Shown piece by piece: positions 4,404 to 61,492 of a stretch of DNA of 64,000 nt; positions within the stretch are counted from its first letter, which is position 1, and each line of letters opens with the position of its first letter. Source of the DNA: an uncultured Desulfobulbia bacterium (GTDB lineage: Bacteria > Desulfobacterota > Desulfobulbia > Desulfobulbales > S012-135). The DNA lies in contig CAYRGZ010000001.1 of the NCBI GenBank assembly GCA_964423785.1, positions 9,782-73,781 of the forward strand. The letters are read 5' to 3'. The notes beneath the pieces were generated by a model that saw only the letters and a program-made list of their open reading frames with translations, searched no databases and was not told the origin of the DNA. A program made the translations under genes and the position numbers.

Positions 4404-5942
4404 GTGCTCTTCAATTCGTACACCTATATCTTGTTTTTTTTACCGCTGGTGGTGGCGGGATATTTTTCCGTTAACCGGCGGAAGGGAGAACGCTGGGCCA
4501 TCGTCTGGCTGGTTGCCGCCTCGTTGCTGTTCTATGGTTGGTGGAAACCAGTCTATCTCCCCTTGCTCCTTTTTTCCATTGGGTTCAATTTCTGGGTTGG
4601 CTGCCATTTGCCGCGAGCGGCGGAGCGTCGGCGCCGCGCCTTGCTCAGGCTTGGCATCACGGTTAATCTGGGGCTGCTGGCCTATTTCAAGTATGCCGGC
4701 TTTGTGGTCGCCAACGTCAACACTCTGTTCGATACCGATTTCGCCGTTGGTCCCATCGTCTTGCCCCTTGCCATCTCCTTTTTCACCTTTCAGCAAGTCG
4801 CCTATCTCGTCGATTCGGCCAGGGGCTTGACCAAAGAGTACGATTTTTGGCGTTATAGCCTGTTTGTCGCCTTCTTTCCCCAGCTCATCGCCGGCCCCAT
4901 TGTTCACCATGCCGAGGTGCTGCCCCAGTTTGCCGACGAAAAACGTCACCGGAAGATAGCCGAAAATCTCGTTGTCGGCATCGTCATCTTTGTCATTGGC
5001 TTGTGGAAAAAGGTGATGGTCGCCGATACGGTGGCCGGTTACGCTACACCGGTGTTCACCGCTGTGGAACAGGGATATGGTCCGACTGTCGTTGAGGCCT
5101 GGACCGCCGCCCTTGCCTACGCCCTGCAGATCTATTTCGATTTCAGCGGCTATTCCGACATGGCCATCGGCTCTGCCCGGCTTTTTGGCATCCGTTTGCC
5201 GCTCAATTTCCACTCGCCGTACAAGGCCGATAACATCATCGAGTTCTGGCGACGTTGGCACATGACCCTGTCCCGTTTTTTACGGGATTATCTCTACATT
5301 CCCCTGGGCGGCAACCGGAAGGGAACCCTATGGCGCTTCGTCAACGTCTTCATCACCATGTTTCTCGGCGGGCTTTGGCACGGGGCCGGGTGGAACTTCA
5401 TCATCTGGGGCGTGCTCCATGCCGCCTACATGTTCGTCAACCATCTATGGCACCGGATTGTTCCCGCTGCCGGTGGGAAGCATTGGTGGAGCGTGGCGGC
5501 GGCCCGCGTCTGTACCCTGGTGGCGGTGATCGTCGCCTGGGTCTTTTTCCGGGCCGAAACGCTGGCCGGCGCGCTGCGGATGCTCAAGGGAATGGCGGGC
5601 GGTAACGGAATGGTGGTGCCCCAAAAGTACCTTGCCCGCTGGGGCGAGGTAGGGGAATGGCTCGCCGTACACGGAGTCGCTTTTCAGACAACCCGTTTTC
5701 TGACGAGCCTGACTCCATTGGTCAATCTGGTCATTCTCTTGGTGTTGTGCGCTTCGCTCCTGCCCAACACCCAGGAGATCATGGCTCGGTACGAACCGGC
5801 CCTGGGCTATGGGGGGGCTGGCCCCCGCCGCTGGTACGAGTTTTCCATCCGCCCCCTCACCGCCGTGGCCGGTGCCGGGCTGTTTCTCGTCTCCTTTTTC
5901 CACCTCACCAGGGTGTCCGCCTTTTTGTACTTCAATTTCTGA
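4404..5942 (+). CDS. MBOAT-family membrane-bound O-acyltransferase (AlgI/DltB-like)
   Basis: Contains the hallmark FWRRWHMTLSRFLRDYLYIPLGGNRKG and multiple TM segments. The track start 4374 is TTG. GTG at 4404 follows AGGAGAGG (4393-4400) and gives the canonical MLFNS.. N-terminus. Confidence 0.9.
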   Translation: MLFNSYTYILFFLPLVVAGYFSVNRRKGERWAIVWLVAASLLFYGWWKPVYLPLLLFSIGFNFWVGCHLPRAAERRRRALLRLGITVNLGLLAYFKYAGFVVANVNTLFDTDFAVGPIVLPLAISFFTFQQVAYLVDSARGLTKEYDFWRYSLFVAFFPQLIAGPIVHHAEVLPQFADEKRHRKIAENLVVGIVIFVIGLWKKVMVADTVAGYATPVFTAVEQGYGPTVVEAWTAALAYALQIYFDFSGYSDMAIGSARLFGIRLPLNFHSPYKADNIIEFWRRWHMTLSRFLRDYLYIPLGGNRKGTLWRFVNVFITMFLGGLWHGAGWNFIIWGVLHAAYMFVNHLWHRIVPAAGGKHWWSVAAARVCTLVAVIVAWVFFRAETLAGALRMLKGMAGGNGMVVPQKYLARWGEVGEWLAVHGVAFQTTRFLTSLTPLVNLVILLVLCASLLPNTQEIMARYEPALGYGGAGPRRWYEFSIRPLTAVAGAGLFLVSFFHLTRVSAFLYFNF

Positions 5943-6043
5943 TGAACTCGTAATAATTCGCAGTCGGTCCAGGTCTGACACGATAATTTAAAGGGTTACG
6001 AAGCGCGAACGCGATGAAATCGCAGTTTTTGCGATTTCATCAA
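5941..6043 (+). repeat. ~105-bp intergenic repeat family, copy A
   Basis: Carries the conserved core GCAGTCGGTCCAGGTCTGACACGATAATT and the terminal hairpin GATGAAATCGCA-gttttt-GCGATTTCATC. Flanked by CAATTTCTGA at 5933-5942 and 6041-6050. Confidence 0.85.
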
Positions 6044-6065
6044 TTTCTGAGCACCGCGAGCATCC

Positions 6066-7169
6066 ATGTCGATCCATACGCCGGAACAACGATGGCTGCG
6101 TCTGTTCTTTGTGATCGTTATGACGGGGATTTCCCTGCTATGCCTGACTAATCTGATCGTCGATCCCTTTGATATCTTTGGGGTCGGCATCCTGCCCCGG
6201 CCGCGCCTCGATAACCTGCGCTCCATCAAGATCCGCTATTTGCGGGAGCATCACGATCTCTACGACAGCTATATCTTCGGTTCGTCCCGCATTGGTATCC
6301 TCGATCCCGTTTGGCTGGAACGGTATTTGCCCGAACGGCGCTTTTACAATATGTTCGTGCCGGGTTCCTCTCCCTACGATCAGGTGCGCCATCTGCGCTA
6401 TTTTTTGCGCCAGGGATACACGGTCAAACGAATTTTTTTGCAGTACGATATCGAGCCCGAATACGCTCCGCCGCCGGACATGCTCTTCATGCGGCTGCAT
6501 CCCCTGGTTACCGGCGAGAACCCTGTCGTGGCCAAGGCCCGTTATCTTGTTCTCTTTTCGCGGGACGCCCTGGAAGCGAAGTTGCGGTACAATTTCGACC
6601 CACCGTCAGTGGTTTACTATCCGGCTAGTGGGCACATGATCGATCTTGAAAAGGAGCGGTGGATCGAAGCGCATCCGGAGGAACACCTGGCTCGGGAAGG
6701 AACATTTCATGAGAGGGTTACGCGCGAACCGGTCTTCCCTGGTTGGGTGCTCCAACAAAAGCTGGATGGCTTGTCCGAGTTTGTCGCCCTGTGCCGGCGG
6801 CACGATATCGTCCTCGACGTGGCGGTGACACCCCATAACCAGATCTATCTCGACCGTCAGAACCGGCAGGGATATCTGTACGAGTTACGTCGTCTGGCCG
6901 AGATAACCGGCGGCTACTGGGACTTCAGCGGCTACAACAGCGTTACCACCAATAATCTCAATTACTTTGAAAGTTCTCATTACCGGCCCCAAGTGGCCTT
7001 CTGGCTGCTCGCCCGTATCTACGAGCAAGAGCCGCAGTCGGTCCCGGCGGATTTCGGCCGCTATGTTACCCCGGCCAATTTGGCTGGCTATCTAGCGCGG
7101 CGCGCGGCGGAACTCGACCGGCGGGATCAGATGCTTCGTGAACAAAGAGATCAAGGATCCGTGCCATGA
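6066..7169 (+). CDS. Membrane-anchored hypothetical protein, possible DltD/SGNH-like partner of the MBOAT
   Basis: ATG start and an N-terminal TM helix. YIFGSSRIG resembles a DltD-type catalytic Ser motif. Lies immediately downstream of the MBOAT, and its stop overlaps the next gene's start (ATGA). Confidence 0.5.
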   Translation: MSIHTPEQRWLRLFFVIVMTGISLLCLTNLIVDPFDIFGVGILPRPRLDNLRSIKIRYLREHHDLYDSYIFGSSRIGILDPVWLERYLPERRFYNMFVPGSSPYDQVRHLRYFLRQGYTVKRIFLQYDIEPEYAPPPDMLFMRLHPLVTGENPVVAKARYLVLFSRDALEAKLRYNFDPPSVVYYPASGHMIDLEKERWIEAHPEEHLAREGTFHERVTREPVFPGWVLQQKLDGLSEFVALCRRHDIVLDVAVTPHNQIYLDRQNRQGYLYELRRLAEITGGYWDFSGYNSVTTNNLNYFESSHYRPQVAFWLLARIYEQEPQSVPADFGRYVTPANLAGYLARRAAELDRRDQMLREQRDQGSVP

Positions 7170-12589: not shown

Positions 12590-14449
12590 TCAGTCGAGTT
12601 CGTAGGTCTCCTGCCACCGCTCCGTCTCGTTCCAGGCCGGTTGCCGCCGCTTGTCGAAGAGGTGGTTGTTGATCACCAGCCAGTCCATCTCGGTGCGCAT
12701 GAAGCATCGGTAGGCATCTTCCGGCGTGCAGACGATGGGCTCGCCGCGCACGTTGAAACTGGTGTTGACGATCACCCCGTAGCCGGTCAGATCTTTGAAT
12801 GTGCGGATGAGGCGCCAGTAGCGAGGATTGGTCTCCCGGTGTACGGTCTGGATGCGCGCCGTGTAGTCGACGTGGGTGACGGCCGGAATGTCGGAGCGCA
12901 GATGGTACAGGCGTTCGTAAAGGCCCATCTCGTCGTAGCCGTCGGGTAGGGGGTTACGGCGTTCTTGTCGCACCGTGTCGATGAGGAGCATGTAGGGAGA
13001 GGGACCGGAAAGATCGAAGTATTCCGCTACGTCCTCGGCCAGCACCGACGGGGCGAAGGGCCGGAACCCTTCCCGGTACTTGATCTTCAGGTTGAGTTTT
13101 TTTTGCATGTCCGGCCGGCGGGCGTCGCCGAGGATGCTGCGGTTGCCAAGCGCCCGCGGGCCGTATTCCATGCGGCCCTGGAACCAGCCGACCACCTGGC
13201 CGTCGGCGAGTAGTTGGGCCACGCGGCCAAAGAGGTCGTCGTCGGCGAGCCGTTCCGCCACTGCCCGGTAACGGCGGATGGTGCGCTCAATATCGATGTC
13301 AGAAAACGCCGGGCCGAGATAGCTGCCGGCCATGGCGTCGGAGTGGCCGGGCTGGCGCGGTTGCTCCTGCCAGATGTGGTGGGCGGCAAAAGCGGCTCCC
13401 AGGGCCCCGCCGGCATCGCCGGCCGCTGGCTGGATCCAGAGATCGTCGAAGATGGCTGCCCGCCGCAGCTTACCATTGGCGACGCAGTTGAGGGCGACGC
13501 CGCCGGCCATTACCAGATTACTGGCGCCGGTAAGCCGACGGGCGGTCTTGGCCATGCGCAGGACGGCCTCTTCGGTTACCTGCTGGACCGCCAGGGCCAT
13601 GTCCATGTACGGCTGGTCGAGGTCGGATTCCGGCTCACGACGCGGGATACCGAACAACCGCTCCCAGCGTTCGTTGTGGCACATCTTGAGGCCGGTGGCG
13701 TAATCGAAGTACTCCATGTTGCAGAGCAGGGAGCCGTCGTCTCGCAAGTCGATCAACTCATCAAGGATGTGCTTCTTGAAACGGGCCACCCGTTCGCCGT
13801 CGTTGCCGTAGGGGGCCAGGCCCATGAGTTTGTACTCGCCGCTGTTGACTTTGAAACCGCAGTAGTAGGTAAAGGCGGAGTAGAGCAGCCCGAGAGAGTG
13901 GGGAAAGTTGAGCTGCTGCAGCAGGGTGATGCAGTTGCCCTGGCCGTGGCCGATGGTGGTGGTGGCCCATTCGCCGACCCCATCGATGGTGAGGATGGCC
14001 GCCTCCTCGAATGGCGAGGGGAAGAAGGCGCTGGCGGCATGGGAAAGATGGTGCTCCGGAAAGAGCAGGGGCGGGCGGCGACGGAGCCAGCCACCGGCGA
14101 TGGTTTCGACTTCCTCCCAGACCATTTTGCGCATGAAGAGCTTTTCCTTGATCCAGACCGGCATGGCGGACAGGAAGCTGGTCAGGCCACGGGGCGCAAA
14201 AGCGTGATAGGTTTCCAGGAGACGCTCGAACTTTAGGTACGGTTTGTCGTAAAAGGCGATGGCCGCAAGGTCGGAGATATCAACCCCGCCTTCCTCCAGG
14301 ACGTACTGTACCGCCCGGGCCGGAAAGGAAGCGTCGTGCTTCTTACGGCTGAAGCGTTCCTCGTGGGCCGCGGCGCAAATCTGTCCGTCCACGAGCAAGG
14401 CGGCGGCGCTGTCGTGGTAGAAGGCGGAAATGCCGAGAATGGCGCTCAT
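12590..14449 (-). CDS. Carbamoyltransferase (NodU/CmcH family)
   Basis: MSAILGISAFYHDSAAALLVDGQICAAAHEERFSRKKHD is the typical NodU/CmcH N-terminus. 619 aa full length. Confidence 0.9.
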   Translation of the reverse strand: MSAILGISAFYHDSAAALLVDGQICAAAHEERFSRKKHDASFPARAVQYVLEEGGVDISDLAAIAFYDKPYLKFERLLETYHAFAPRGLTSFLSAMPVWIKEKLFMRKMVWEEVETIAGGWLRRRPPLLFPEHHLSHAASAFFPSPFEEAAILTIDGVGEWATTTIGHGQGNCITLLQQLNFPHSLGLLYSAFTYYCGFKVNSGEYKLMGLAPYGNDGERVARFKKHILDELIDLRDDGSLLCNMEYFDYATGLKMCHNERWERLFGIPRREPESDLDQPYMDMALAVQQVTEEAVLRMAKTARRLTGASNLVMAGGVALNCVANGKLRRAAIFDDLWIQPAAGDAGGALGAAFAAHHIWQEQPRQPGHSDAMAGSYLGPAFSDIDIERTIRRYRAVAERLADDDLFGRVAQLLADGQVVGWFQGRMEYGPRALGNRSILGDARRPDMQKKLNLKIKYREGFRPFAPSVLAEDVAEYFDLSGPSPYMLLIDTVRQERRNPLPDGYDEMGLYERLYHLRSDIPAVTHVDYTARIQTVHRETNPRYWRLIRTFKDLTGYGVIVNTSFNVRGEPIVCTPEDAYRCFMRTEMDWLVINNHLFDKRRQPAWNETERWQETYELD

Positions 14450-14470
14450 GGAAAATGCTCTTTAAGATAT

Positions 14471-14573
14471 GATGAACCCGTAAAAAGCCGCAGTCGGTGC
14501 AGGCCTGACACGATAATTTAATGGGTTACACCGTGAACTCGATAGAATCGCATTGCTTGCGATTCTATCAAAA
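14471..14573 (+). repeat. ~105-bp intergenic repeat family, copy B
   Basis: GATGAACCCGTAAAAAGCCGCAGTCGGTGCAGGCCTGACACGATAATT...GATAGAATCGCAttgcTTGCGATTCTATCAAA. The stop codon of the small gene at 14568-14570 lies in its right end. Confidence 0.85.
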
Positions 14574-14717
14574 CAGGGTGTAAACGAACGGAGCGATGGC
14601 CGAACCGCTCGTGAAGACGATGAGCACCCCGAAGAGCAGCATGGTGAGGATGATGGGAAGCAGCCAGAATTTTTTGCGGACTTTCAAAAAGCCCCACAGG
14701 TCTTTGAAAAATTGCAT
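14568..14717 (-). CDS. DUF5989-family small membrane protein (49 aa)
   Basis: Below the ORF-track cutoff; translated by hand as MQFFKDLWGFLKVRKKFWLLPIILTMLLFGVLIVFTSGSAIAPFVYTLF*. This matches my recollection of the DUF5989 pattern (..RKKFWLLPI...APFIYTLF) found next to carbamoyltransferase and SxtJ. Confidence 0.7.
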   Translation of the reverse strand: MQFFKDLWGFLKVRKKFWLLPIILTMLLFGVLIVFTSGSAIAPFVYTLF

Positions 14718-14735
14718 GGTGTCGTATGTGTTCGG

Positions 14736-15119
14736 TTAAAAGGGGTGTTCCAGATCTTTTTTTTCAAAGCGATGGTTGCGTTCCACAAAGGCGGTCAACG
14801 ACGATCCCTGCTTGAAATTGTCGCGCTGCATGGCGTCGGTGGCCCAAAACCGGCGTACGGCGCCGATGGGGGTGACGATCAGGAAAAAGACCACGCTTAA
14901 GAGAACCTTGGACATCACCGTACCGAGGGCGTGGGAGAATCCGAACCAGAGTTTTGCCGCTGGCCGGAACACAGGCGGCCAAGTCATGGTGACCACCAGC
15001 AAGGCGATGGCGGCAAGCAAAGCCCCCCGGTTGCCGGTGGCCAGGTTGACGAGCAGGCAAAAGAGGGTCAGAGCCAGGCCGGTATCCTTGGCCTGGATAT
15101 TGGGATCGGTTGGCTTCAT
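14736..15119 (-). CDS. SxtJ-family membrane protein
   Basis: ATG at 15119 (MKPTDPNIQAKDTGLALT...). About 4 hydrophobic helices. Family call rests on resemblance to SxtJ-like proteins and on the conserved neighbourhood with DUF5989 and the carbamoyltransferase. Confidence 0.6.
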   Translation of the reverse strand: MKPTDPNIQAKDTGLALTLFCLLVNLATGNRGALLAAIALLVVTMTWPPVFRPAAKLWFGFSHALGTVMSKVLLSVVFFLIVTPIGAVRRFWATDAMQRDNFKQGSSLTAFVERNHRFEKKDLEHPF

Positions 15120-15185
15120 GGTTGTGGAATGCGGGGATCGGGAAAAGGGTGTTGCGCACCCACCCATCGCCGGTCAGTCAAAACG

Positions 15186-15290
15186 GATGAACCCGTAAAA
15201 ACGCGCAGTCGGCCCAGGCCTGACACGATAATTCAAAAAGGTACAAAATGTAAGCTCGATGGAATCGCACTTTTTGCGGTTCCATCAAAA
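15186..15290 (+). repeat. ~105-bp intergenic repeat family, copy C
   Basis: GATGAACCCGTAAAAACGCGCAGTCGGCCCAGGCCTGACACGATAATTCAA...GATGGAATCGCActttttGCGGTTCCATCAAAA. Confidence 0.85.
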
Positions 15291-15358: not shown

Positions 15359-15462
15359 GATGAACCCGTAAAAACGCGCAGTCGGTCCAGGCCTGACACG
15401 GTAATTCAAAGGGTTACAAAGCGCGAACTCGATGAAATCGCTCTGTTTGCGATGTCATCAAA
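15359..15462 (+). repeat. ~105-bp intergenic repeat family, copy D
   Basis: GATGAACCCGTAAAAACGCGCAGTCGGTCCAGGCCTGACACGGTAATTCAA...GATGAAATCGCTctgtttGCGATGTCATCAAA. Confidence 0.85.
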
Positions 15463-18343: not shown

Positions 18344-18428
18344 TTTTGATTCCATCGAGTTCACGGTGGGTAACCCGTCGAATTCCCGTGTCAGACCTGC
18401 GCCGACTGCGCGTTTTTACGGGATCGTC
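18344..18428 (-). repeat. ~105-bp intergenic repeat family, copy E (hairpin-deleted)
   Basis: Reverse orientation: TTTTGATTCCATCGAGTTCACGGTGGGTAACCCGTCGAATTCCCGTGTCAGACCTGCGCCGACTGCGCGTTTTTACGGGATCGTC. One hairpin arm is missing. Confidence 0.75.
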
Positions 18429-18474
18429 ATGTTTTCCGGTTTACGGTTGCGGGTTTCCAGTTTAGAGTAGGCAG

Positions 18475-18570
18475 TTTTGATGGAATCGCAAAAAATGCGA
18501 TTCCATCAGGTTCACGGTGTGTAACCCGTTGAATTGCCGTGTCAGGCCTGGACCGGCTGCGATTTTTTAC
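18475..18570 (-). repeat. ~105-bp intergenic repeat family, copy F
   Basis: Reverse orientation with an intact hairpin GATGGAATCGCAaaaaaTGCGATTCCATC and core CGTGTCAGGCCTGGACCGGCTGCG. Confidence 0.85.
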
Positions 18571-18571
18571 G

Positions 18572-18710
18572 AGGCCATCAGTTTTGATGGAATCGTAACA
18601 ATTCCGATCGGTCATTCGCTGCGCTCACCACCTCCATCGAGTTCACGGTTTGTAACCATTTGAATTATCGTGTCAGGCCTGGGCCGACTGCGAGTTTTTG
18701 CGGGTTCATC
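18572..18710 (-). repeat. ~105-bp intergenic repeat family, copy G (with ~45-nt insertion in hairpin)
   Basis: Reverse orientation. The hairpin is interrupted by ...CGATCGGTCATTCGCTGCGCTCACCACCT..., and the core TATCGTGTCAGGCCTGGGCCGACTGCGAG is retained. Confidence 0.8.
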
Positions 18711-18751
18711 AGTTTTCCGGAATCATTTCGAACCAACTAAGGAATAACGCG

Positions 18752-21089: not shown

Positions 21090-21137
21090 TGGCGCGCCAG
21101 GGAGGATTCGAACCCCCGACCTACGGATTAGAAGTCC
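21090..21137 (-). repeat. attL: 48-bp duplicate of the tRNA-Arg 3' end (island boundary)
   Basis: TGGCGCGCCAGGGAGGATTCGAACCCCCGACCTACGGATTAGAAGTCC is identical to 33080-33127. Identity stops at position 49 (A vs G). Confidence 0.9.
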
Positions 21138-21248
21138 ATTCTGACGTGATTTTGCGTGATTTCGCGTGAAGCAATAACCCTTGAACTTGTCGTCGTTTTC
21201 TGCTATTCTTTCTTCATGCGACATCACTGAAAATCACCCCTCCACACG

Positions 21249-21277
21249 GTAAAAAGTGGGGACAGAGTGGGGACTGG
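21249..21277 (+). promoter_or_regulatory. Putative integrase arm-type binding site (left)
   Basis: The 29-bp GTAAAAAGTGGGGACAGAGTGGGGACTGG is identical to 32994-33022 and contains two GTGGGGAC half-sites. It lies ~110 bp inside attL, just upstream of int. Confidence 0.5.
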
Positions 21278-21356
21278 CGGGCGAAAACGGATTCGCGTTT
21301 TCATGGAATCCGTAGGTTTCCGTCCTGGGCCGAACCCCCGAGGAGACGACGGCAGC

Positions 21357-22592
21357 ATGCCCCGGTGGAAACCCACGAAGTACGAGGGCGTCCGATACCG
21401 TGAACACCCTACACGAAAGCACGGTATCCGTCCAGACCGTTACTTTGCCATCCGGCTCCAGATAAATGGTCGCCGCCACGAGGAAGGCGTGGGCTGGGAG
21501 AGCGAAGGCTGGACGGCTTCCAAGGCTGCCACCCTCCGGGCCGAACTGAAGCGAGCGGCCACCACCGGCGACGGCCCCGTGGCCCTGGCCGAGAAGCGGC
21601 GGCTGGCCGAGGAACGACGGCAACGGGAAGAGGCTGAGCGGCGACGGCGGGAACTGGAAGAAGTCACTTTTGCCGAATTCTTCCAGGACAATTACTTGCC
21701 GTGGACCACCGGCAACGGCAAGTCGGCCCGGTCGCTCCAGCGTGAACGCTCCCTTTTCCGGCTGTGGCTTGCCCCCGTGATCGGCGACCTTCTTTTCGGC
21801 GAAATCTCCCCCTTCCACATAGAAAAGATTAAGGCAACGATGCTGAAGGCCGGCCGGGCTCTTCGTTCGGTGCAGTATGCTCTGGCCCTGGTGCGGCAGG
21901 TGTGGAACCGGGCGCGGGATGCCGGCATCCACGACCTCCCGTGCCCGACCAGGAAGGTGAAGCTGGACACGAAGAAGCACGACAACCGCCGGATCAAGTT
22001 CTTGACCCGCGAGGAAGCGGCGGCCCTACTTGCGGAATGCCGGCGGCGAAGTGCAAACCTGCACGACATGGCCTTGTTGTCCCTGCATTGCGGGCTGCGG
22101 GCCGGGGAGATTTTCGGCCTGACCTGGGCCGACGTGGACATCACCCACGGCTTGGTCGTCCTGCGGGACACCAAGAGCGGCCGGACCCGTTCGGTGCCCA
22201 TGACCGAGGCGGTACGGACCATGTTCTGCGGCCGGGAACGGGGTAAGCCGACGGACCTTGTTTTCCCGGCGCGGGATGGTGGTCGGATCGAGCAGATTTC
22301 AAACGCCTTTGACCAGGCGGTGAAGGCCCTTGGTCTGAACGAGGGTGTCACGGACCGGCGACAGCGGGTTGTCTTTCACACCCTGCGCCACACCTACGCT
22401 TCTTGGCTTGTGGCGGCCGGGACCGACCTGTACACGGTGCAGCGGCTCCTGGGGCACCAGAGCATTGCCCTGACCGAGCGGTATGCCCACCTTGCCCCGG
22501 ACACGTTGAAGGCCGCGACACAAGCGCTGGAGCAGTACGTCAACGATACGCCGCCACGGCTGAACGTCGTCCCTGGAGGCCGGGGACGATGA
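21357..22592 (+). CDS. int: Tyrosine-type site-specific integrase
   Basis: ATG at 21357 follows GAGGAG. C-terminal catalytic motifs ...GLRAGEIFGLTWADV..., HTLRHTYASWLVAAGTDLYTVQRLLGHQSIALTERYAHL (R, HxxR, Y). The longer track ORF from 21267 was rejected. Confidence 0.9.
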   Translation: MPRWKPTKYEGVRYREHPTRKHGIRPDRYFAIRLQINGRRHEEGVGWESEGWTASKAATLRAELKRAATTGDGPVALAEKRRLAEERRQREEAERRRRELEEVTFAEFFQDNYLPWTTGNGKSARSLQRERSLFRLWLAPVIGDLLFGEISPFHIEKIKATMLKAGRALRSVQYALALVRQVWNRARDAGIHDLPCPTRKVKLDTKKHDNRRIKFLTREEAAALLAECRRRSANLHDMALLSLHCGLRAGEIFGLTWADVDITHGLVVLRDTKSGRTRSVPMTEAVRTMFCGRERGKPTDLVFPARDGGRIEQISNAFDQAVKALGLNEGVTDRRQRVVFHTLRHTYASWLVAAGTDLYTVQRLLGHQSIALTERYAHLAPDTLKAATQALEQYVNDTPPRLNVVPGGRGR

Positions 22593-22777
22593 AGGTCCGG
22601 GACATTATCCGGCTGATCGAGCAAGAGGGATGGGTGCAGGTACGCCAGCGGGGAAGCCATCGGCAATTCAAGCACCCTTCCCGGCCGGGGCTGGTGACCA
22701 TTGCCGGCCATCCCGGTGACGACCTGGCCCCTGGAACCTTGAAGAGCATCTTGAGACAAGCGGGGATCGAATCATGA
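22589..22777 (+). CDS. hicA: HicA-family toxin (type II TA, mRNA interferase)
   Basis: MKVRDIIRLIEQEGWVQVRQRGSHRQFKHPSRPGLVTIAGHPGDDLAPGTLKSILRQAGI is the canonical HicA/YcfA pattern. Its ATG overlaps the integrase stop (ATGA at 22589-22592). Confidence 0.88.
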   Translation: MKVRDIIRLIEQEGWVQVRQRGSHRQFKHPSRPGLVTIAGHPGDDLAPGTLKSILRQAGIES

Positions 22778-22989
22778 GAAACTTCGTGGTCATCATCGAG
22801 CAAGCAGAAGGCAACCTGTCCGCCTACGTGCCCGACCTGCCGGGCTGTGTCGCTACCGGCGCGACCGAGGACGAGGTGTTGCACAACATCAAAGAGGCCA
22901 TCGAGTTCCACCTTGAAGGTCTTGCCCTGGCAGGGATGCCCGTCCCTTCCAGCCGGGCCGTTGTCCGGGAGGTGGAGGTGGCGGCGTAG
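22774..22989 (+). CDS. hicB: HicB-family antitoxin (short form, 71 aa)
   Basis: MRNFVVIIEQAEGNLSAYVPDLPGCVATGATEDEVLHNIKEAIEFHLEG is the HicB/UPF0150 fold signature. ATGA overlap with hicA. Confidence 0.85.
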   Translation: MRNFVVIIEQAEGNLSAYVPDLPGCVATGATEDEVLHNIKEAIEFHLEGLALAGMPVPSSRAVVREVEVAA

Positions 22990-23287
22990 GGCTTGTCTGC
23001 GTTTGTTATAGGCCGAAGTTCCCTCGGTAAAAAACAAAACCTCTTCATGATTGTCGAACAACATCGAGGCCAGCGCCTAGCGCATGTGTCATTTCACGTA
23101 GTACGCCAGCAGGCAGAGGAGATGTTCGGTTGAGGACATGTTCGATATCATGGGTACTGAACTTTACAGAGTTGAGGCTGCCAATGGTTTAATTCGGTGA
23201 AATAACAACATTAAACGCAAAACCCTTCCATCCTTGGTATACTGAGCTTGCAAAATTATCCAATAATTCCAAGGAGGAATGGTCTAA

Positions 23288-23785
23288 ATGTACGATATCA
23301 GCAACCTCGAAAAGCTGGCAGCAATTCATTTGAACAACAGGATTGATACGTTCTTTGACAACTTCCGCCTCGGCACCCTGCTCAACCGAGCGGGTATCCG
23401 TAAGCTCCGGGGCGTTTCGCTGGTCAAGCTGTTCAAGGCCATATTCATGCTGGCCTTCATCCGGGAGAACTTCTTCCGCGGTATCGTCCAGCAGGATCAG
23501 GGGTTCGGCAAGGATGCCGCCTACGCTCTGCTCCAAGGGGCCAACTACAACTGGCGCAAACTGCTGTTGCTACTGGCGGCCAAGCTCTGCGCGGCTTTCT
23601 ACCTGCTGACCGAGAAGGACAAGCGGAAAGTCCTGATGATCGATGATGCCACCTACGAGCGGCCTTATTCGCGGAAGGTAGAGTTGGTGGCGCGCGTCCA
23701 TGACAACTGCCGTAAACGGTTCACCAGGGGATTCAAAATGCTGACCCTGGTCTTGTCGGATGGAGTCAGGACGGGAACTTTCTGA
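23288..23785 (+). pseudogene. IS4-family (DDE) transposase, N-terminal fragment
   Basis: ...KVLMIDDATYERPYSRKVELVARVHDNCRKRFTRGFKMLTLVLSDG matches the first-Asp region of IS4-type DDE transposases. The ORF stops after 165 aa, before the rest of the catalytic domain. The flanking DNA is AT-rich. Confidence 0.6.
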
Positions 23786-23836
23786 TATCATGGAGAATTC
23801 CCTTCAGTCCCATCCTATTTGTTCGGGAACTTCGGG

Positions 23837-26701
23837 TTAGATGTTCTCCACGCTGGATCGGTAGAGCCTTGCCAAATCCTCGTCCGATGCGCTTGGCGGC
23901 GCGAGCACGGTGCGGCTTAGCCGGCGCTTGCTTTCCAGCAAGGCGTGCAGGTTCTTGTCGAAGCTGTGCTGGCCGAAGCGTGGATGGATCGCCAGTGGCA
24001 GATGCACGTGGACGGTGCGCATCTGTCCGATCCGGTAAACGCGGTCCGTGCATTGGTCCTCGACCGCAGGATTCCACCAGCGCGTGAGATGGATCACATG
24101 ATTCGCCGCGGTGAGGGTGAGGCCCACCCCTCCAGCCTTGGGCGAGAGTAACATCACATCGAACTCCCCTGCGGCACCAGCCTGGAATTCATCGATCCGT
24201 GCTTGACGCCGGTGCCCGCTCACCGTGCCACTGATTCGTAGCGGCGGTCGTGAAAGTCCGTAGCGGCGTTGGAGATACGGAATGAGAACCTCTTGCATGT
24301 CGAGGAACTCCACAAAGAGCAAGGCCTTCTCGCCGGCCTCGGCAATGTCGTCGAGGACCCGCATCGTTGCCGAGAGACGGGCCGAGCGTGCCACGTCGGC
24401 ATCCGTCAATCCCTCGGCCCCGAGTTCACCTGCCAGCAAGGAGATCCGCCGCAGCCGGTGCAACACCTCCAGCATCATACCTCGTTGACCTTTACTATGC
24501 GCAGCGAGGCGCAGCGCCTCCTCGTAGGCGGATGCTTGTTCCGGCGGCATCAGTTCCTCGATTACCGATTCGCGTTTCTCCGGGAGGCCGTGAAGATGGT
24601 CTTCCTTCATGCGTCGCAACATCAGAGGCGGACGGGTATCTCGAGTGAGCTTTCCCGCCAGAGGCGCGGCCGCCTCAGGTGTGTTGAAGGCGGGCTTCTC
24701 GTAGTCCTGGTGGAAGTCCTTGAGTGCGCCAAGAAAACCGGGGCGTATCGCGTCCACGATGGACCAGAGATCGGCCAGTCGGTTTTCCACCGGCGTTCCC
24801 GTGAGAGCGAGAGTGAAATCGGCCTTTATCGATTTGGCCATTTCCGTCAGCCGGGCCGCTGGATTTTTGATTTTCTGCGCCTCGTCCAGCACCAGCACGC
24901 CCCAGTCGACGCTGAGGAAGATACGAATCCGGTCCCGTAGCGTCTCATAGGTGGTGAGCACCCAGTCGGCCTCGAACAACTTCTGCGTCTGTTCTCGGCG
25001 TGTCGCATGTAACAAGCGTTTGAGATGGGGGCCATACGCCCGTACCAGGATGCCGAGCCCCGGGGAGGCGAGGTGTTTGCGGCTTTCGGCCTCCCAGTTC
25101 TTGAGGAGACCCGTGGGGGCCACCACAAGGAACGGCTTGCGAGGCCAGGCATTACGAGCCATTTGTTCTTGAACCCAGGCGAGAAATCCAAGGGTCTGCA
25201 GCGTTTTTCCGAGACCCATGTCGTCGGCCAGAAGCGCCCCCGAACTCCCTGAGGCCCAATGGGTTTGGAGCCACTCGAGTCCTTCCGTCTGGTGTGGATA
25301 GAGTTGGACCTCGTGCAGCGGAGCCGGTATGCCGCCTATCTCTCCTCGGCGCGGAACAGGACTGGTTTCGAAACCGAGTTCCTCAAGGTTATCGATGATC
25401 ACCGGCACCAAGGCCGGGGCCTGTTTTTCCTTCCCGTCTGATGTGTTCTCCCTGGTGGACTTCGGTGAGCCGCCCACCACCCGCGCGAAGGCCTCCAGCG
25501 TCTCGTCGTCAACGAGGATTCGTTGGCCGCCGAATTCGATCTCTTGCTCTCCTCGTTCCCGCGCGTTGTGCAATTTTTCGATGATTTTGGGGAGGTCCTT
25601 GATCTGCACCTGATAAATGGCTCCTCCAGCCGGGACGCCGAGGAGGAGATCCTCTGGGGGCAGCCAAGTCTGCCGGGAGGGCATGATATAGGCGCAGACC
25701 TTGGGCCGCCATTTACCGAGGTGCCGCACCCGCGCGCTCAAAAATTCGGGCGTCTCCTGGAAGAGCACTTCGAGGTCGTCTTCCGCAAGGTCGTCGGCGA
25801 GACGTTCGGCCAGTATCGCCTGGGGGTTTGCGGCAAAAGCCCGTTGCTCTACCAGCGGACGGTCCTGGTATTCGCGTACCACCTTCAGAGCCTTGTGCAG
25901 GTGTTCGCCGATCACCACGTACCATCCGCCTTCAACGACGTAGCGACGTTGCGCTACAGGGAGGCGATGGAAGCGCTCGACGAAACTCGCTTGCGGTTCC
26001 GGCGGTAAAGATTGGTCGAAGGGGGTAGGTGGTTCCTCCGATGGTTCCTGCCGCTGGCCCCGGGAAAGCAGCACAGGATGGAAGGTCCCGTTGTCCGTGA
26101 AATCGAGGGTAAAGGCGTCGGAACGCACGATATTCATCGTGCGGAGGTGTTCGTCGATCACCGCATCTGCCGGTAGATGCCGCTTAAGCTCGGCCCAGAT
26201 GGTGAAACGTTCGTCGAGGTCCGCCGGCGGCGTTTCGTTGAAGGTATCCATGCCCGTGATCAGGGAGAACAGGGGGTCCAGCAGGGTATACCTCCTGTTT
26301 CCCACAGCGAGCAGGGGACCCTCTCGCTGCGCTCCCAGTACCGGCCGGCCGTCGTCGGTCAGGAGTTGGTAGTGGAAGCGGAAGCTCGGACTTGAAAGAA
26401 GCCCGGCCCCGCGGATACAGAGCCGGTAAGGGGCGGGGGGCGGGAGTCCCAGGCGTGCGAGCTCTATGGCATCTAGAGCGGCGATCTGAGAGGAGTTCAA
26501 CACCACCTCTTCGTGTTGCGTGGTATGCGCGGTCTCGTCCGCGATAAGGGCAAGCAGATGGCCAACGGACGCGGGCCCCCGTTTTCCATGCAACACGGAT
26601 GCACCCCACTCCTTGATCGGGACCCTGGAGCCGTCCCCCCTTTCGACCCAAAATCGTACGCTTCCTTGGTCGGATTGCCAATGTAGCCGTAGATCGTTCA
26701 T
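23837..26701 (-). CDS. zorD: ZorD, SNF2-family helicase/ATPase of type I Zorya
   Basis: SNF2 motifs LADDMGLGKTLQT (I), LVLDEAQKIKNP (II, DEAQ), LTGTPVENRLADLWS (III) and LLSPKAGGVGLTLTAANHVIHLTRWWNPAVEDQCTDRVYRIGQ (V/VI). ATG at 26701 overlaps the zorC stop (TAATG). The track ORF extends to a GTG at 26776. Confidence 0.85.
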   Translation of the reverse strand: MNDLRLHWQSDQGSVRFWVERGDGSRVPIKEWGASVLHGKRGPASVGHLLALIADETAHTTQHEEVVLNSSQIAALDAIELARLGLPPPAPYRLCIRGAGLLSSPSFRFHYQLLTDDGRPVLGAQREGPLLAVGNRRYTLLDPLFSLITGMDTFNETPPADLDERFTIWAELKRHLPADAVIDEHLRTMNIVRSDAFTLDFTDNGTFHPVLLSRGQRQEPSEEPPTPFDQSLPPEPQASFVERFHRLPVAQRRYVVEGGWYVVIGEHLHKALKVVREYQDRPLVEQRAFAANPQAILAERLADDLAEDDLEVLFQETPEFLSARVRHLGKWRPKVCAYIMPSRQTWLPPEDLLLGVPAGGAIYQVQIKDLPKIIEKLHNARERGEQEIEFGGQRILVDDETLEAFARVVGGSPKSTRENTSDGKEKQAPALVPVIIDNLEELGFETSPVPRRGEIGGIPAPLHEVQLYPHQTEGLEWLQTHWASGSSGALLADDMGLGKTLQTLGFLAWVQEQMARNAWPRKPFLVVAPTGLLKNWEAESRKHLASPGLGILVRAYGPHLKRLLHATRREQTQKLFEADWVLTTYETLRDRIRIFLSVDWGVLVLDEAQKIKNPAARLTEMAKSIKADFTLALTGTPVENRLADLWSIVDAIRPGFLGALKDFHQDYEKPAFNTPEAAAPLAGKLTRDTRPPLMLRRMKEDHLHGLPEKRESVIEELMPPEQASAYEEALRLAAHSKGQRGMMLEVLHRLRRISLLAGELGAEGLTDADVARSARLSATMRVLDDIAEAGEKALLFVEFLDMQEVLIPYLQRRYGLSRPPLRISGTVSGHRRQARIDEFQAGAAGEFDVMLLSPKAGGVGLTLTAANHVIHLTRWWNPAVEDQCTDRVYRIGQMRTVHVHLPLAIHPRFGQHSFDKNLHALLESKRRLSRTVLAPPSASDEDLARLYRSSVENI

Positions 26702-28140
26702 TATGGCATCAGCATCCGGTGCCACATACGGATACCGGTATTCCGGCGGATGAGATCGGCGAGGGTCGCTTGCCACCTGCCGTTCTCGGCGCCGTGGTGC
26801 ACTCCTTCGTGGTCGGCCCCTAGGATGAGGTCCTCGCGGCTGTATTCACGCCGATAAGGACTCGGAATATATCGATCTGGCCCCCCTTCGTCCACCCAAA
26901 CGCGGTATTTCCCCATGTGGTTCCATTCGGTGATGACCAGGTTTCCGACACGCAGCAGCAGCGCCGCATGATCGGCCTGGATGCCGGGGCCGCGTTTGAG
27001 TCGCCCGTATCGGTTGGAGTCCCCCCCGAGCATCCGGCTCGCTTCGGGCACGATTTTAGGGTGTAAGACGACCCAGGCATCCCGGATATGGCCGGCCCGC
27101 AGATAAGCGGTCCAGAAAGCCTTACGGTACTTCCAGTGCCGCCTTGCGGTCTCGTCCGTCCTGGCTACGTACTCCAGCAGAAGAAAAAAGTCGTCCAAGG
27201 TTTCCTTTACCAGCCAACTCTGCACGACCGCTCGTGCTTCGCTCGAGACGCCCACCCATCCTCCAGCCCCGAGCCGTGGGTCTCCGAAATAGGCGAGCAC
27301 GAACTCCTTGATCTGTTTTCGAAAGGGGTCTGGAAGGGTGCGTCGGGTGAAGGGCAGGAGTAAAGCGTGGGCTAGGCCGACCTTGAGGGCAGGCTGCTTG
27401 AAACGCAGTTCGTTCCCCGCAGCATTGGGAACCAGCGCAAAGGCAAGAAGCCTTTCGAGACGCTCCAGTCCGAAGTCGGCAAGACCCAGGCGCTGCTCGC
27501 AAAGGGCAAGGCCCCGCTCGAAGGCGGCCTCCACCAAACCCTGGCGGGAGAGGTGCCCAGTCAAGGTGGCTGCGGCGAGGTGTTTGTCGATCGAGGCCGT
27601 GCTGTCCAGAAGTTCGGTAATCAGTTTTTCTGGAGCGTCAGCGGCAAGAATGCCGAAACGTTCGTCCGCCTCGACGAGTCTCCTGCAACGCCGTTGTGTA
27701 GAGCCCGCGAGGAGCGTACGCACCCTCGAACGGACCGGATCGAAGATAGACGTTCCACGTGGATAGGCCTTCAGGAAGGCCTGGCAAAGGGCGATGATAA
27801 CGTCAGGGATGGCTTCCTGGGTGACACGCTCAAGGTACGCTCGCAACAGTGACTCGTGTAGAGCAAGGGGATGTTGTCCATTCCAGTTTTCGAAGATTAC
27901 CCAGGCCGCGAGACGCAGCTCCAGCCGGCTGAAATCTTGAAGGGACCTCTTTCGCTGTGCCACATCCTGCAACATCCGCCAAATTTCGTCCAGGTCCTGC
28001 CGAGAAGGGATCCTTACGGGGACTTCGGAAAACTGCGCGATGATCTGTTGGTGGGCCTGGGCGAGCTTTTTCGGCTCCCTGGGGACCGGTTCTCGGAATG
28101 GGAGACGCCAGTAGTGTAGTTGCTCCTTCAAGCTCGTCAC
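26701..28140 (-). CDS. zorC: ZorC-like protein (expected EH-signature domain) of type I Zorya
   Basis: 479-aa soluble protein in the third position of a zorA-zorB-X-SNF2 operon, with a GTGA overlap with zorB. I cannot verify the EH_Signature domain by eye, so the call rests on synteny and size. Confidence 0.65.
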   Translation of the reverse strand: MTSLKEQLHYWRLPFREPVPREPKKLAQAHQQIIAQFSEVPVRIPSRQDLDEIWRMLQDVAQRKRSLQDFSRLELRLAAWVIFENWNGQHPLALHESLLRAYLERVTQEAIPDVIIALCQAFLKAYPRGTSIFDPVRSRVRTLLAGSTQRRCRRLVEADERFGILAADAPEKLITELLDSTASIDKHLAAATLTGHLSRQGLVEAAFERGLALCEQRLGLADFGLERLERLLAFALVPNAAGNELRFKQPALKVGLAHALLLPFTRRTLPDPFRKQIKEFVLAYFGDPRLGAGGWVGVSSEARAVVQSWLVKETLDDFFLLLEYVARTDETARRHWKYRKAFWTAYLRAGHIRDAWVVLHPKIVPEASRMLGGDSNRYGRLKRGPGIQADHAALLLRVGNLVITEWNHMGKYRVWVDEGGPDRYIPSPYRREYSREDLILGADHEGVHHGAENGRWQATLADLIRRNTGIRMWHRMLMP

Positions 28141-33022: not shown

Positions 33023-33079
33023 GGACCGAAAAGGCGAAAAGTCCTTAGCGGAATAGGGCTGCTAACTCCTTGATTTTAT

Positions 33080-33156
<77 letters not shown>

Positions 33157-45238: not shown

Positions 45239-45796
45239 TCATGGAACGACAATGGTGTCGCCGGGGGCCACGATCAGGTTCTGGCCCGGATTGGCACCCT
45301 TGATCACTGCTTCGTAGTTGAAGGGCAAAAGCTGCTCGCGGTCTCCGGTGCGCCGCACGATGACGATCCGGTCCTTCTTGGCCCATTCCTGGAAGCCGCC
45401 GGCCTTGGCGATGGCCTGCAGGACGGTGATCGGATAGTCGATGGCGAATTCACCCGGCTGGTTGACCATACCGATGACGTAGTAGCGGCGGCTGGTGCTC
45501 TCCACCAGGATCACCGACACCGCCGGTTCGGTGATGTATTTCGTGAGCCGTTCCTTGATGGCGACCGCCACCTCGTCGGGGGTGCGACCGGCGGCCTGGA
45601 TATCGCCCACCAGCGGCAGGGAGATCCGGCCGTCCAGGCGAACCTTGACCTGGCGAGAGAGGTCCGGCTCCTTCCAGACCTGCACCTCGATGACGTCGCC
45701 GAGGCCGATGCGGTACGGTTCAAGCGTAGTAGTCGCCGTCAAGCCCTGTGATGTAAGCAATACGAGTGCCAGCACCAAAAAAACGATTGATTTCAC
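45239..45796 (-). CDS. Polysaccharide export protein (Wza/EpsE-like, Poly_export + SLBB)
   Basis: GTG start preceded by AAGGAGG. A signal peptide, then PYRIGLGDVIEVQVWKEPDLSRQVKVRLDGRISLPLVGDIQAAGRTPDEV. Confidence 0.82.
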   Translation of the reverse strand: MKSIVFLVLALVLLTSQGLTATTTLEPYRIGLGDVIEVQVWKEPDLSRQVKVRLDGRISLPLVGDIQAAGRTPDEVAVAIKERLTKYITEPAVSVILVESTSRRYYVIGMVNQPGEFAIDYPITVLQAIAKAGGFQEWAKKDRIVIVRRTGDREQLLPFNYEAVIKGANPGQNLIVAPGDTIVVP

Positions 45797-57690: not shown

Positions 57691-57790
57691 GTACGACCCG
57701 GAAAACATTGCCGGCGGTCCAGGCCTGACACGATAATTCAACGACTTACGGGTGAACTCGATGGAATCGTATGGTTGCGATTCCGTCAAA
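57691..57790 (+). repeat. ~105-bp intergenic repeat family, copy H (diverged left end)
   Basis: ...GGCGGTCCAGGCCTGACACGATAATTCAACGACTTACGGGTGAACTCGATGGAATCGTAtggTTGCGATTCCGTCAAA. Flanked by CGTCAAAATT (57681-57690) and CGTCAAAAATT (57784-57794). Confidence 0.8.
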
Positions 57791-57873: not shown

Positions 57874-57889
57874 TGGCACGGTGGTTGCT
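57874..57889 (+). promoter_or_regulatory. Sigma-54 promoter upstream of flgF
   Basis: TGGCAC-GGTGG-TTGCT is an exact match to TGGCAC-N5-TTGCW. It lies 27 nt upstream of the flgF ATG, with the AAGGAGAG RBS in between. Confidence 0.7.
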
Positions 57890-60879: not shown

Positions 60880-60940
60880 GGCGTTTCCTCAAGAGGGTTG
60901 ACGGGGGGAAATTTGTCGCAACACCTCGCCCCGTAAGGAT

Positions 60941-61051
60941 GGTAAGAGACCGCAGGGTGCCGCAGATACGCGAAAGAGGGCTGTTCGCTATAGTAAACCT
61001 ATGCGGACTGCCCGATGACAAAGTAGATGCGGTGCCCTGCGATCTCTTACC
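60941..61051. repeat. 111-nt imperfect long inverted repeat / hairpin
   Basis: GGTAAGAGACCGCAGGGTGCCGCA (60941-60964) pairs with TGCGGTGCCCTGCGATCTCTTACC (61028-61051) at about 21 of 24 positions. The 63-nt interior itself contains short stems (GCGAA/TTCGC, ATAG/CTAT). Confidence 0.6.
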
Positions 61052-61181
61052 CCGGCAAAATCTTCCCGGTTGACCTAGGCCGGATTTGCCGGTGGCCGGC
61101 GTGCTGGTCGCCGGCGTTTTGTATCTGATTGAAATAGAAGAGAAAAGCAGAAGCAGCGATTGCCCGGCCGCGGTGATTTCT

Positions 61182-61197
61182 TGGCACCGCTCTTGCT
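61182..61197 (+). promoter_or_regulatory. Sigma-54 promoter upstream of flgI
   Basis: TGGCAC-CGCTC-TTGCT is an exact consensus match, 310 nt upstream of the flgI ATG. Two repeat copies lie between the promoter and the gene. Confidence 0.65.
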
Positions 61198-61280
61198 CAT
61201 GAAGAGAAGCAGACAAGAAATGCTGGTCCAGGAGATCCGGTCGGCGGAACCGGCATGGTTTTGTGGCAAGCAACGAAAGA

Positions 61281-61388
61281 TGATGGACCCGTAAAAACTC
61301 GCAGTCGGTGCAGGCCTGACACGGTAATTCAACGGGTTACACACGGTGAACTCGATGGAATCGCACTTTTTGCGATTCCATCAAAGAT
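61281..61388 (+). repeat. ~105-bp intergenic repeat family, copy I
   Basis: TGATGGACCCGTAAAAACTCGCAGTCGGTGCAGGCCTGACACGGTAATTCAA...GATGGAATCGCActttttGCGATTCCATCAAAGA. Confidence 0.85.
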
Positions 61389-61492
61389 GTACAACTCGTA
61401 AAAAGTTGCAGTCGGCCCAGGCCTGGCGATAATTCAATAGGTTACACACCGCGAACTCGATGGAATCGCACTTTTTGCGATTCCATCAAAGA
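61389..61492 (+). repeat. ~105-bp intergenic repeat family, copy J (tandem to I)
   Basis: TGTACAACTCGTAAAAAGTTGCAGTCGGCCCAGGCCTGGCGATAATTCAA...GATGGAATCGCActttttGCGATTCCATCAAAGA. Confidence 0.85.

Follow-up and report, generated by a model that had tools for sequence, protein, structure and literature searches.

A family of short intergenic repeats was characterized in a 64,000-nucleotide stretch of bacterial DNA (hereafter the window, i.e., the whole stretch analysed; 61% GC). The copies are best explained as a miniature, non-coding and non-autonomous element of the type called MITE (miniature inverted-repeat transposable element), likely decayed and moved by a transposase encoded elsewhere; the probability of this explanation is estimated at roughly 0.6. 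So far the family has been found only in one uncultured species of sulfate-reducer-type Thermodesulfobacteriota (Desulfobulbales-like). The definition of a MITE applies since the unit is small, non-coding, AT-rich and intergenic, has inverted termini and cognate-specific flanking duplications, and forms dispersed subfamilies with truncated or rearranged copies. The same organism is also represented in JGI metagenome 3300009408 (loci L001, L009 and L011), in the Logan assembly SRR5189948 (loci L002, L010 and L012) and in JGI 3300023444 (locus L013). The sequence in view amounts to ~94 kb and reaches ~10 kb to the left and ~8.5 kb to the right of the window.

The window contains exactly ten copies. 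A repeat finder, alignments and a scan of the whole window, filters off, with a covariance model built from eight complete copies all agree with the positions given in the initial annotation, except that the boundary between copies F and G had been placed ~9-15 nt off. No further fragment was found in the window by the covariance model, the other matches being only antisense to the palindromic hairpin. The core pattern CGGNNCAGGYCTGACACGRNAATT has 9 matches in the window vs. 0.01 expected from shuffled sequences; the tenth copy, missed by this pattern, is copy J, in which the core has a 2-nt deletion at that place. The ten-sequence alignment gives a unit of ~101-105 nt with 38 invariant columns. 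An eleventh copy (K) was detected by the covariance model ~8.5 kb past the window. The 11 copies (10 in the window plus K) occupy 8 separate loci over ~64 kb. They are given below with strand, length, covariance-model score, the two flanks (the body of a copy being read from GATG to CATC), the number of matching flank positions, and placement.

Copy A, 5941-6041, plus strand: 101 bp, complete, 125.8 bits; AATTTCT at 5934-5940 and 6042-6048 (7/7); between the MBOAT gene (4374-5942) and the open reading frame (ORF) 6066-7169, both on the plus strand; sense.
Copy B, 14471-14569, plus strand: 99 bp, complete, 118.1 bits; AAGATAT and AAAACAG (no match); between the DUF5989/SxtK-like gene and the carbamoyltransferase gene (12590-14449), both on the minus strand; antisense.
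Copy C, 15186-15286, plus strand: 101 bp, 115.8 bits; AAAACG and AAAATG (5/6); msbA-sxtJ spacer of a minus-strand operon; antisense.
Copy D, 15359-15459, plus strand: 101 bp, 118.9 bits; CAACTT and AAACTC (4/6); msbA-sxtJ spacer, 72 nt from C; antisense.
Copy E, 18348-18428, minus strand: 81 bp, truncated, 63 bits; AAAACAT and AAAATAT (6/7); divergent waa (heptosyltransferase)/degT spacer, same strand as waa.
Copy F, 18479-18579, minus strand: 101 bp, complete, 129.8 bits; AAAACT at 18473-18478 and 18580-18585, the latter common to G (6/6); same spacer and strand as E.
Copy G, 18586-18710, minus strand: 125 bp, complete plus a 24-nt insertion, 78.9 bits; AAAACT at 18711-18716 and 18580-18585 (6/6); same spacer and strand as E.
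Copy H, 57691-57787, plus strand: 97 bp, the most divergent, 98.3 bits; AAAATT and AAAAATT (5/6, or 6/6 with a one-base shift); starts 48 nt after a flhB-like gene and ends 87 nt upstream of the flgF sigma-54 promoter 57874-57889; sense.
Copy I, 61282-61382, plus strand: 101 bp, 127.6 bits; AAAGAT at 61276-61281 and 61383-61388 (6/6); flgI 5' untranslated region (UTR), downstream of the sigma-54 promoter 61182-61197; sense.
Copy J, 61389-61487, plus strand: 99 bp, head-to-tail with I, 100.4 bits; AAAGAT at 61383-61388 (common to I) and 61488-61493 (6/6); same UTR as I; sense.
Copy K, L011:18546-18654: GAAAAAA and AAGGAGT (no match); between flgM and polA; sense to polA.

Prokaryotic MITEs are under ~500-800 bp long, have terminal inverted repeats (TIRs) of ~4-30 bp and target-site duplications of 2-10 bp, encode no transposase, and are AT-rich, intergenic and stem-loop-forming (PMC10969869, PMC11602168). 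The present unit is ~101 bp long when full, and the bodies of the copies span 81-125 bp. They are too short for a transposase, and by eye they contain only reading frames of 3-5 codons. Their GC content is 45-54% (58% in the truncated copy E) vs. the 61% of the window.

The left terminus is a 16-bp motif, GATGAACCCGTAAAAA, followed in the alignment by three variable bases. Then comes a core of ~45 nt composed of GCAGTCGGnnCAGGCCTGACACGrnAATTCAA, a short variable stretch and GGTTAC. GGTTAC is followed by a variable stretch, by GTGAACTC and by the hairpin, i.e., GATGGAATCGCA, a loop of 5 nt and TGCGATTCCATC, which form a 12-bp stem at the right end. GATGGAATCGCA is a second, inward-facing copy of the terminal motif and TGCGATTCCATC is the inverted right terminus. 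When the first 16 nt are compared with the reverse complement of the last 16, 9-13 positions of 16 match in eight of the nine hairpin-bearing copies (7/16 in copy H), which bears out the TIR-like termini already described. In the window, 0.017% of the 16-mers match the left terminus at 12 or more positions of 16 (1.7e-4 per position). The terminal motif is therefore present three times: at the left end, in the inner hairpin arm (same orientation) and, inverted, at the right end. These inverted termini come up to the length of ~10-15 bp or more expected of a MITE, though imperfectly, and copy E has no right arm. Some copies depart from this scheme: E is without the hairpin loop and right arm, the 24-nt insertion of G is in the left hairpin arm, H and J open with GTAC in place of GATG (the left terminus variant of H being GTACGACCCGGAAAAC), and in K the right hairpin arm is decayed and the AAGGAG ribosome-binding site of polA lies at that spot.

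The hairpin, which the initial annotation had recognized, is the sole well-supported helix. Its cells are paired at 92-93%, and double changes preserve three pairs: G-C to A-U in copies A and D, a neighbouring position in copy B, and C-G to U-A in the inner helix. Copy A carries the compensated variant GATGAAAT/ATTTCATC and copy B the compensated variant GATAGAAT/ATTCTATC. Two internal helices and a long-range one were also considered and rejected, their variation being nearly all one-sided or pair-breaking with at most one compensatory cell per helix. The folding z-scores of several copies (−3 to −4.6) are carried by the hairpin, and both strands fold equally well. The palindromic part amounts to 29 bp of the unit; conservation is as strong in the 72-nt non-palindromic remainder as in the hairpin.

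The flanking direct repeats described before are all present. They are alike within a locus and different between loci (AATTTCT, AAAACT, AAAGAT, AAAATT). In the two arrays with common flanks the 6-mer occurs three times, i.e., AAAACT-G-AAAACT-F-AAAACT and AAAGAT-I-AAAGAT-J-AAAGAT. Cognate flanks match better than permuted pairings (p ~0.005 at length 6, nine independent units); copies G and I were dropped from this test because the shared 6-mers would have been counted twice. Copy A offers the clearest case, its flank being something other than an A-run. The TGA stop of the upstream MBOAT gene ends with the first two bases of A, and the excision of A together with one repeat restores ...TTCAATTTCTGAGC... 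and leaves this stop codon unmoved. The support for target-site duplications within the 2-10 bp range and differing between loci is moderate.

The relatedness among copies does not follow their position over the ~64 kb seen. Pairwise identity ranges from 72 to 90%. Tandem neighbours (F-G 82%, I-J 85%, C-D 84%) resemble each other no more than distant copies do. The closest pair is F-I (90%), at a distance of 43 kb; the arrays are therefore not local duplications. Copies A and D, ~9 kb apart with unrelated flanks, are 87% identical and have derived variants in common (AAGCGCGAAC and the compensated GATGAAAT...TCATC hairpin), just as H and J have the GTAC left end in common. This is a subfamily structure produced by copying, not by local duplication. 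The sequence flanking the copies is unrelated between loci. The three Logan contigs checked all break off within a copy (L002 within B, L010 within A, L012 within J), as expected of a de Bruijn assembler at multi-copy sequence. Since the first 41 nt of copy A hold variants found in no other copy of the window (alignment), the break in A, taken with these private variants, hints at further copies elsewhere.

The local density is 156 copies per Mb in the window, where 10 copies lie in 64 kb, and ~117 per Mb for the ~94 kb as a whole. This is on a par with the top genome-wide MITE density of a census of 183,232 genomes, ~123 per Mb (PMC11602168). At such a density across the whole genome, the family would do much to shape the intergenic space and would cause breaks in assemblies.

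All 11 copies are intergenic, as had been noted for the first ten, and they are oriented without regard to transcription. Copies B, C and D lie inside a minus-strand lipopolysaccharide (LPS) operon (msbA, sxtJ-like, DUF5989, carbamoyltransferase). Copies E, F and G, of which E is the proximal member of the array, are upstream of a promoter-like block conserved in a relative. The end of copy J is 19 nt before the ATG of flgI. The covariance model found no copy between G and H, a distance of 39 kb (18.7-57.7 kb), nor in a 12-kb tRNA-Arg island.

The orthologous spacers of relatives whose flanking proteins are 79-88% identical contain no copy. The best named homologues of MsbA (65-81% identity) belong to metagenome-assembled genomes (MAGs) of Thermodesulfobacteriota, Desulfobulbaceae, Desulfurivibrionaceae and Desulfobacterales, and no genome closer than these is on record. 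With the covariance model, the element was found neither in 21.7 kb of the MAG with an 81% identical MsbA (L006), nor in the contigs of an 88% MsbA relative (L007, L008), nor in 23 kb of a 79% FlgI relative (L014, L015). In L014 the flgH-flgI spacer keeps the sigma-54 promoter and the flgI UTR measures 107 nt; in the window this UTR measures 310 nt, i.e., ~97 nt after removal of I, J and two 6-mers. These lengths are consistent with an empty site.

Some short matches were nevertheless seen in the relatives. The flgI UTR of L014 contains a weak match, CCGTTGAACGGTGGAATCGCA (p ~0.005-0.01 before correction for six tests). A match in the flgM-polA spacer of L014 was rejected, as it is conserved flgM leader sequence and not the element. 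The orthologous degT-waa spacer of L007 contains the left terminal motif TGATGAACTCGTAAAAA and no core (p<0.005); at L007:2677-2705 this core-less motif is folded into a small hairpin of its own (GGATGATGAACTCGTAAAAAAGCCATCATCC). This hints that elements with the same termini exist in this relative. The same spacer (570 nt) contains several other hairpin-forming sequences, e.g., GTTGAAAAAGCCAGGGACGGCTTTTTCAAC, and seems to collect small elements in both species. Locus L013 (FlgI 97% identical) was considered as a close strain and rejected: it is the same sequence except for a divergent contig end, where the differences are clustered, and thus gives no information on polymorphism. The only other strain seen carries the same copies I and J.

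Outside these relatives, the exact core 19-mer has three chance matches, in unrelated coding or non-repeat sequence, among 185,579 species-representative genomes and JGI metagenome contigs. The scan missed the JGI contig of the organism itself, which contains the 19-mer, and absence elsewhere is thus weak evidence. No match was obtained in viral contigs (exact-pattern scan) or in phage and plasmid records (BLAST). The diagnostic sequence strings of the element had no match in the literature searched, and nothing relevant was found there on MITEs in Desulfobulbales. Apparently the sequence family is undescribed, while the kind of genomic parasite is well known.

Several observations weigh against the assignment to a MITE. 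(i) A transposase or insertion sequence (IS) with matching termini, which the initial annotation had envisaged, was not found in the ~94 kb. (ii) A clean empty site was not found in the comparison with L006, L007 and L014, the spacers being too diverged for base-level alignment. (iii) The permutation test on the flanks is not significant at a fixed length of 7 (p 0.09); all flanks are A-rich, so that non-cognate pairs already match at 3.4 positions of 6, and the duplication signal comes from 2-3 variable bases per locus plus copy A, the flanks of B and K having no match. (iv) The inverted termini do not match perfectly, and the left end of H and J differs from that of the other copies. (v) The internal core is conserved at least as well as the termini, and a pure parasite would not obviously need it. 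(vi) The copy numbers refer to the ~94 kb seen, not to the whole genome.

The route that we infer for the family is as follows. A transposase encoded elsewhere in the genome would recognize the inverted termini and make a staggered cut of 6-7 bp in A-rich DNA (target consensus ~AAAAnT), typically next to the end of a gene, and the insertion of the element would duplicate this target. Since the target would be regenerated on both sides, later insertions could hit the same site and give the head-to-tail arrays that share a 6-mer. The family would be old and no longer obviously active. Its hairpin would remain intact because propagation needs pairing, or through templated correction within the palindrome; template-switch correction within quasi-palindromes is established. 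The hairpin compensation could thus come from a propagation requirement, from selection on the transcript or from such correction. The copies in operons and UTRs would put the same stable hairpin into mRNA in either orientation, and any effect on transcript processing or stability would be a side effect rather than a designed function.

The family resembles MITEs by its ~101-bp non-coding unit with imperfect 16-bp inverted termini and 6-7-bp duplications in an A-rich target; like them, it is present in multiple copies placed strictly between genes, is richer in AT than the genome, and includes subfamilies and truncated copies. It differs from the typical MITE, which folds end to end, since the right terminus is doubled into a local 12-bp hairpin. 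The core is also unusually conserved, and the head-to-tail arrays share a duplicated target. These two last points are the unusual details of what is otherwise an ordinary example of a familiar class, in a host lineage that is uncultured and poorly sampled. The family may be of use for marking strains, and its insertions of stable hairpins in LPS and flagellar operons may be regarded as a natural experiment. Geobacter and Desulfobulbales were both once placed in the old Deltaproteobacteria. Chunjie, a MITE found in Geobacter uraniireducens, is described in PMC10969869 (citing Chen et al. 2008) as 178-235 bp long and recently active, with conserved TIRs and direct repeats. Chunjie is similar in its insertion between genes of an operon whose structure is left unbroken, and in its many partial or decayed copies beside full ones. 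The present family differs from it by its size (~101 bp) and its age (72-90% identity); the distinction is made on description, not on sequence. The ERIC/IRU and RUP/BOX elements (PMC3184786, PMC3049150) are likewise ~100-130 bp long, intergenic, transcribed with flanking genes and lineage-restricted, and the enzyme that mobilises them is uncertain or unknown. None of them resembles the present family in sequence. ERIC forms one long imperfect palindrome from end to end, and RUP has a link to IS630-Spn1 and a TA duplication.

A first alternative, not very likely, is that the element was spread by transposition and then kept by selection as a cis element recruited by the host, either as a binding platform for a nucleoid or regulatory protein, e.g., integration host factor (IHF), or as an RNA element that controls the stability or processing of LPS and flagellar transcripts. 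The core is indeed nearly invariant in copies otherwise 72-90% alike. Moreover, ATTCAAnnnnTTR, i.e., the IHF core consensus of E. coli with one mismatch, is found at the same position in 7 of the 11 copies, for a background of 0.03 per element. The motif is however broken at key positions in the four other copies, and the matches share ancestry and are not independent; the motif is to be taken as a lead, not as a finding. As regards placement, copies I and J are downstream of the flgI sigma-54 promoter, H is upstream of the flgF one, and the decayed right end of K coincides with the polA ribosome-binding site. On the whole, placement is mixed (sense, antisense, upstream or downstream of promoters, inside operons), and related species run the same operons without the element. 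No helix except the terminal hairpin shows real covariation, and both strands fold equally well. A strand-specific RNA function is unlikely in view of the mixed orientation, the single supported helix and the absence of an Rfam match.

The comparison with the Correia elements (NEMIS) of Neisseria is relevant here. Those elements have 26-bp TIRs, which pair end to end into a long stem, and a TA duplication. Both families consist of intergenic units of ~100-150 bp, often co-transcribed with their neighbours, at high density and with a central IHF-type motif, which in the present case is only a one-mismatch match to the consensus. In Correia elements the IHF site is functional, and RNase III cleaves the elements (PMC10969869). 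The 12-bp stem of the present hairpin is short for RNase III. In contrast to Correia, the present family has a 6-7-bp duplication, imperfect TIRs of ~16 bp and a local hairpin, and the sequences are not similar.

It is unlikely that the elements are of the repetitive extragenic palindrome (REP) or BIME type, in which case the 29-bp terminal hairpin would be the functional unit, recognized as single-stranded DNA by a REP-associated tyrosine transposase (RAYT, IS200/IS605-like Y1) encoded elsewhere, and the rest would hitch-hike. REP, BIME and REPIN elements are mobilised by RAYT (PMC3116915). The likeness is real as regards the short extragenic palindrome, the arrays and the presence in transcripts in either orientation. 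The 12-bp hairpin is kept by at least two independent compensatory changes, which favours base pairing in a single-stranded nucleic acid over two half-sites for a protein, and it is equally stable on both strands. However, REP units are palindromes of 20-40 bp, often in inverted doublets, and the present unit is four times longer and mostly non-palindromic: the hairpin makes up only about a quarter of it (29 of ~101 bp), the non-palindromic rest is equally conserved, and there is no solitary hairpin in the window. The arrays are head-to-tail, not the inverted doublets of REPINs and BIMEs (PMC3116915). The flanks show cognate-specific duplications, which neither Y1-mediated REP nor IS200/605 insertion makes. 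For the scanned genes of the ~94 kb, the Pfam results contain no Y1 transposase domain, and no RAYT was seen. Of the label "MITE/REP-like" given at first, the REP side is less well supported than the MITE side.

A combination of these ideas is decidedly unlikely: the MITE would be driven by an undescribed transposase with a specific preference for its own end or junction sequence, and the host would have turned the near-invariant 45-nt core into a module that binds protein or RNA in LPS and sigma-54 flagellar operons. It is suggested by the co-occurrence of a compensated hairpin, true target duplications and re-insertion into a regenerated 6-bp target.

It is very improbable that the copies are segmental or tandem duplications confined to this region, a possibility that had been raised at first. 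They do form clusters of three (18.3-18.7 kb), two (15.2-15.5 kb) and two (61.3-61.5 kb), and no copy was found outside the organism in the scans of public genomes and metagenomes; those collections missed the organism's own JGI contig, so their silence says little. Nearest relatives are not neighbours, flanks are not shared between loci, the copies span at least 64 kb with the eleventh beyond the window, and the contigs of the other assembly break in copies, including A with its private variants.

Least probable of all are small RNA genes or a cis-regulatory, riboswitch-like leader transcribed from the strand of the element: the z-scores and the G-U pairs of the two predicted internal helices, which would favour the plus strand of the element, speak for it, and against it are the strand-independent z-scores that come almost all from one hairpin, the lack of a fixed orientation relative to neighbouring genes, the occurrence of head-to-tail arrays along with duplicated flanks, and the absence both of a conserved promoter or terminator in the unit and of an Rfam match. 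As regards these signals, no conserved sigma-70-type promoter is present, the sporadic 9-of-12 matches in single copies occurring at the rate of shuffled sequences. The terminator scan calls the 12-bp hairpin an intrinsic terminator in none of the copies; the bases next to the hairpin are AAA(A) on the element strand and, on the opposite strand, GAGTTC, i.e., no U-tract follows, so that the copies are not simple terminators, in line with the initial annotation. The repeats have no match in Rfam 15 at the gathering score, the only hit of the window being a tRNA; at E up to 10, the best hit of copies I and J is a noise-level miRNA (13.6 bits vs. a threshold of 61 bits). The earlier remark that the sequence is not recognized as a known RNA family is unchanged, and no match to an already described Rfam or REP family of known function came up.

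Other architectures were considered and rejected. IS200/IS605-type and Tn7-type architectures were discarded on anatomy. Integron attC/VCR repeats form arrays beside intI, one per cassette and all oriented alike, and have RYYYAAC...GTTRRRY core sites. They were discarded because there is no intI and the only integrase belongs to the tRNA-Arg island; in addition, the spacing across core LPS and flagellar genes is irregular, no cassette lies between tandem copies and the orientation is mixed (core sites were inspected by eye).

The only transposase remnant seen in the ~94 kb is a single ORF of 563 aa at 31090-32781 (minus strand), in which an IS1634/IS4-type DDE domain is in frame with the C-terminal half of IstB, the helper ATPase of IS21. 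It probably derives from an IS remnant that was truncated by a second one or became fused to it. It was rejected as the parent of the repeats, there being no terminal motif nearby and an unrelated upstream end. One JGI contig of the organism ends near 30.7 kb according to coordinate mapping, which fits a multi-copy IS sequence.

This ORF belongs to a genomic island of ~12 kb (window 21090-33156) located at tRNA-Arg(TCT) (33080-33156, minus strand). A 51-nt copy of the 3' half of the tRNA recurs at 21090-21140, a 39-nt repeat is found at 21249-21287 and 32994-33032, and a tyrosine integrase is encoded at 21267-22592. The island contains a four-gene set with Pfam hits resembling the Zorya anti-phage system: OmpA-like (28137-28940), EH_Signature (26701-28140) and SNF2 helicase (23837-26776), together with a 592-aa ORF (28937-30715), which has no family above the Pfam cutoff and occupies the ZorA slot by gene order only.

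The insert of copy G, GGTGGTGAGCGCAGCGAATGACCGA, is related to this region: the 25-nt stretch that covers it at 18608-18632 (minus strand) recurs with one mismatch at 30898-30922 (minus strand), ~170 nt downstream of the IstB remnant. GGTGGTGAGCGCAGCGAATGACCGA may be a second small repeat, or the end remnant of another mobile element once inserted in copy G. Copies G and E (minus strand, 18711-18727 and 18429-18445) and K (L011:18532-18548) are directly preceded by a solitary left terminus motif similar to the H type, ...CCGGAAAAC/A, which suggests insertion beside or into older terminal fragments.

In the LPS core cluster, genes for a carbamoyltransferase, a DUF5989 protein and an SxtJ-like protein are found together (window 12590-15167, minus strand). 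This arrangement mirrors that of SxtI-J-K in saxitoxin clusters. Copies B, C and D fill almost all non-coding spacers around these genes, and the two closest relatives have different genes downstream of msbA.

The exact sigma-54 promoter consensus (TGGCAC-N5-TTGCT) occurs at 57874-57889 (plus strand), 61182-61197 (plus strand) and 45756-45771 (minus strand). The first two are directly upstream of flgF and flgI, the flgI one being conserved in the 79% FlgI relative, and a gene for a sigma-54 activator is located at 35360-36979.

Finally, a long near-perfect hairpin is present in 60885-61125 (plus strand), within the 400 nt that separate flgH from copy I, with arms GGTAAGAGACCGCAGGGTGCCGCAGA and TGCGGTGCCCTGCGATCTCTTACC ~60 nt apart, followed by a GC-rich stem with a T-tract at 61087-61122. 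Its fold z-score is −7.1, its left arm occurs once in the window and it has no Rfam match. It could be the terminator region of flgH, a small RNA or another inverted-repeat element.

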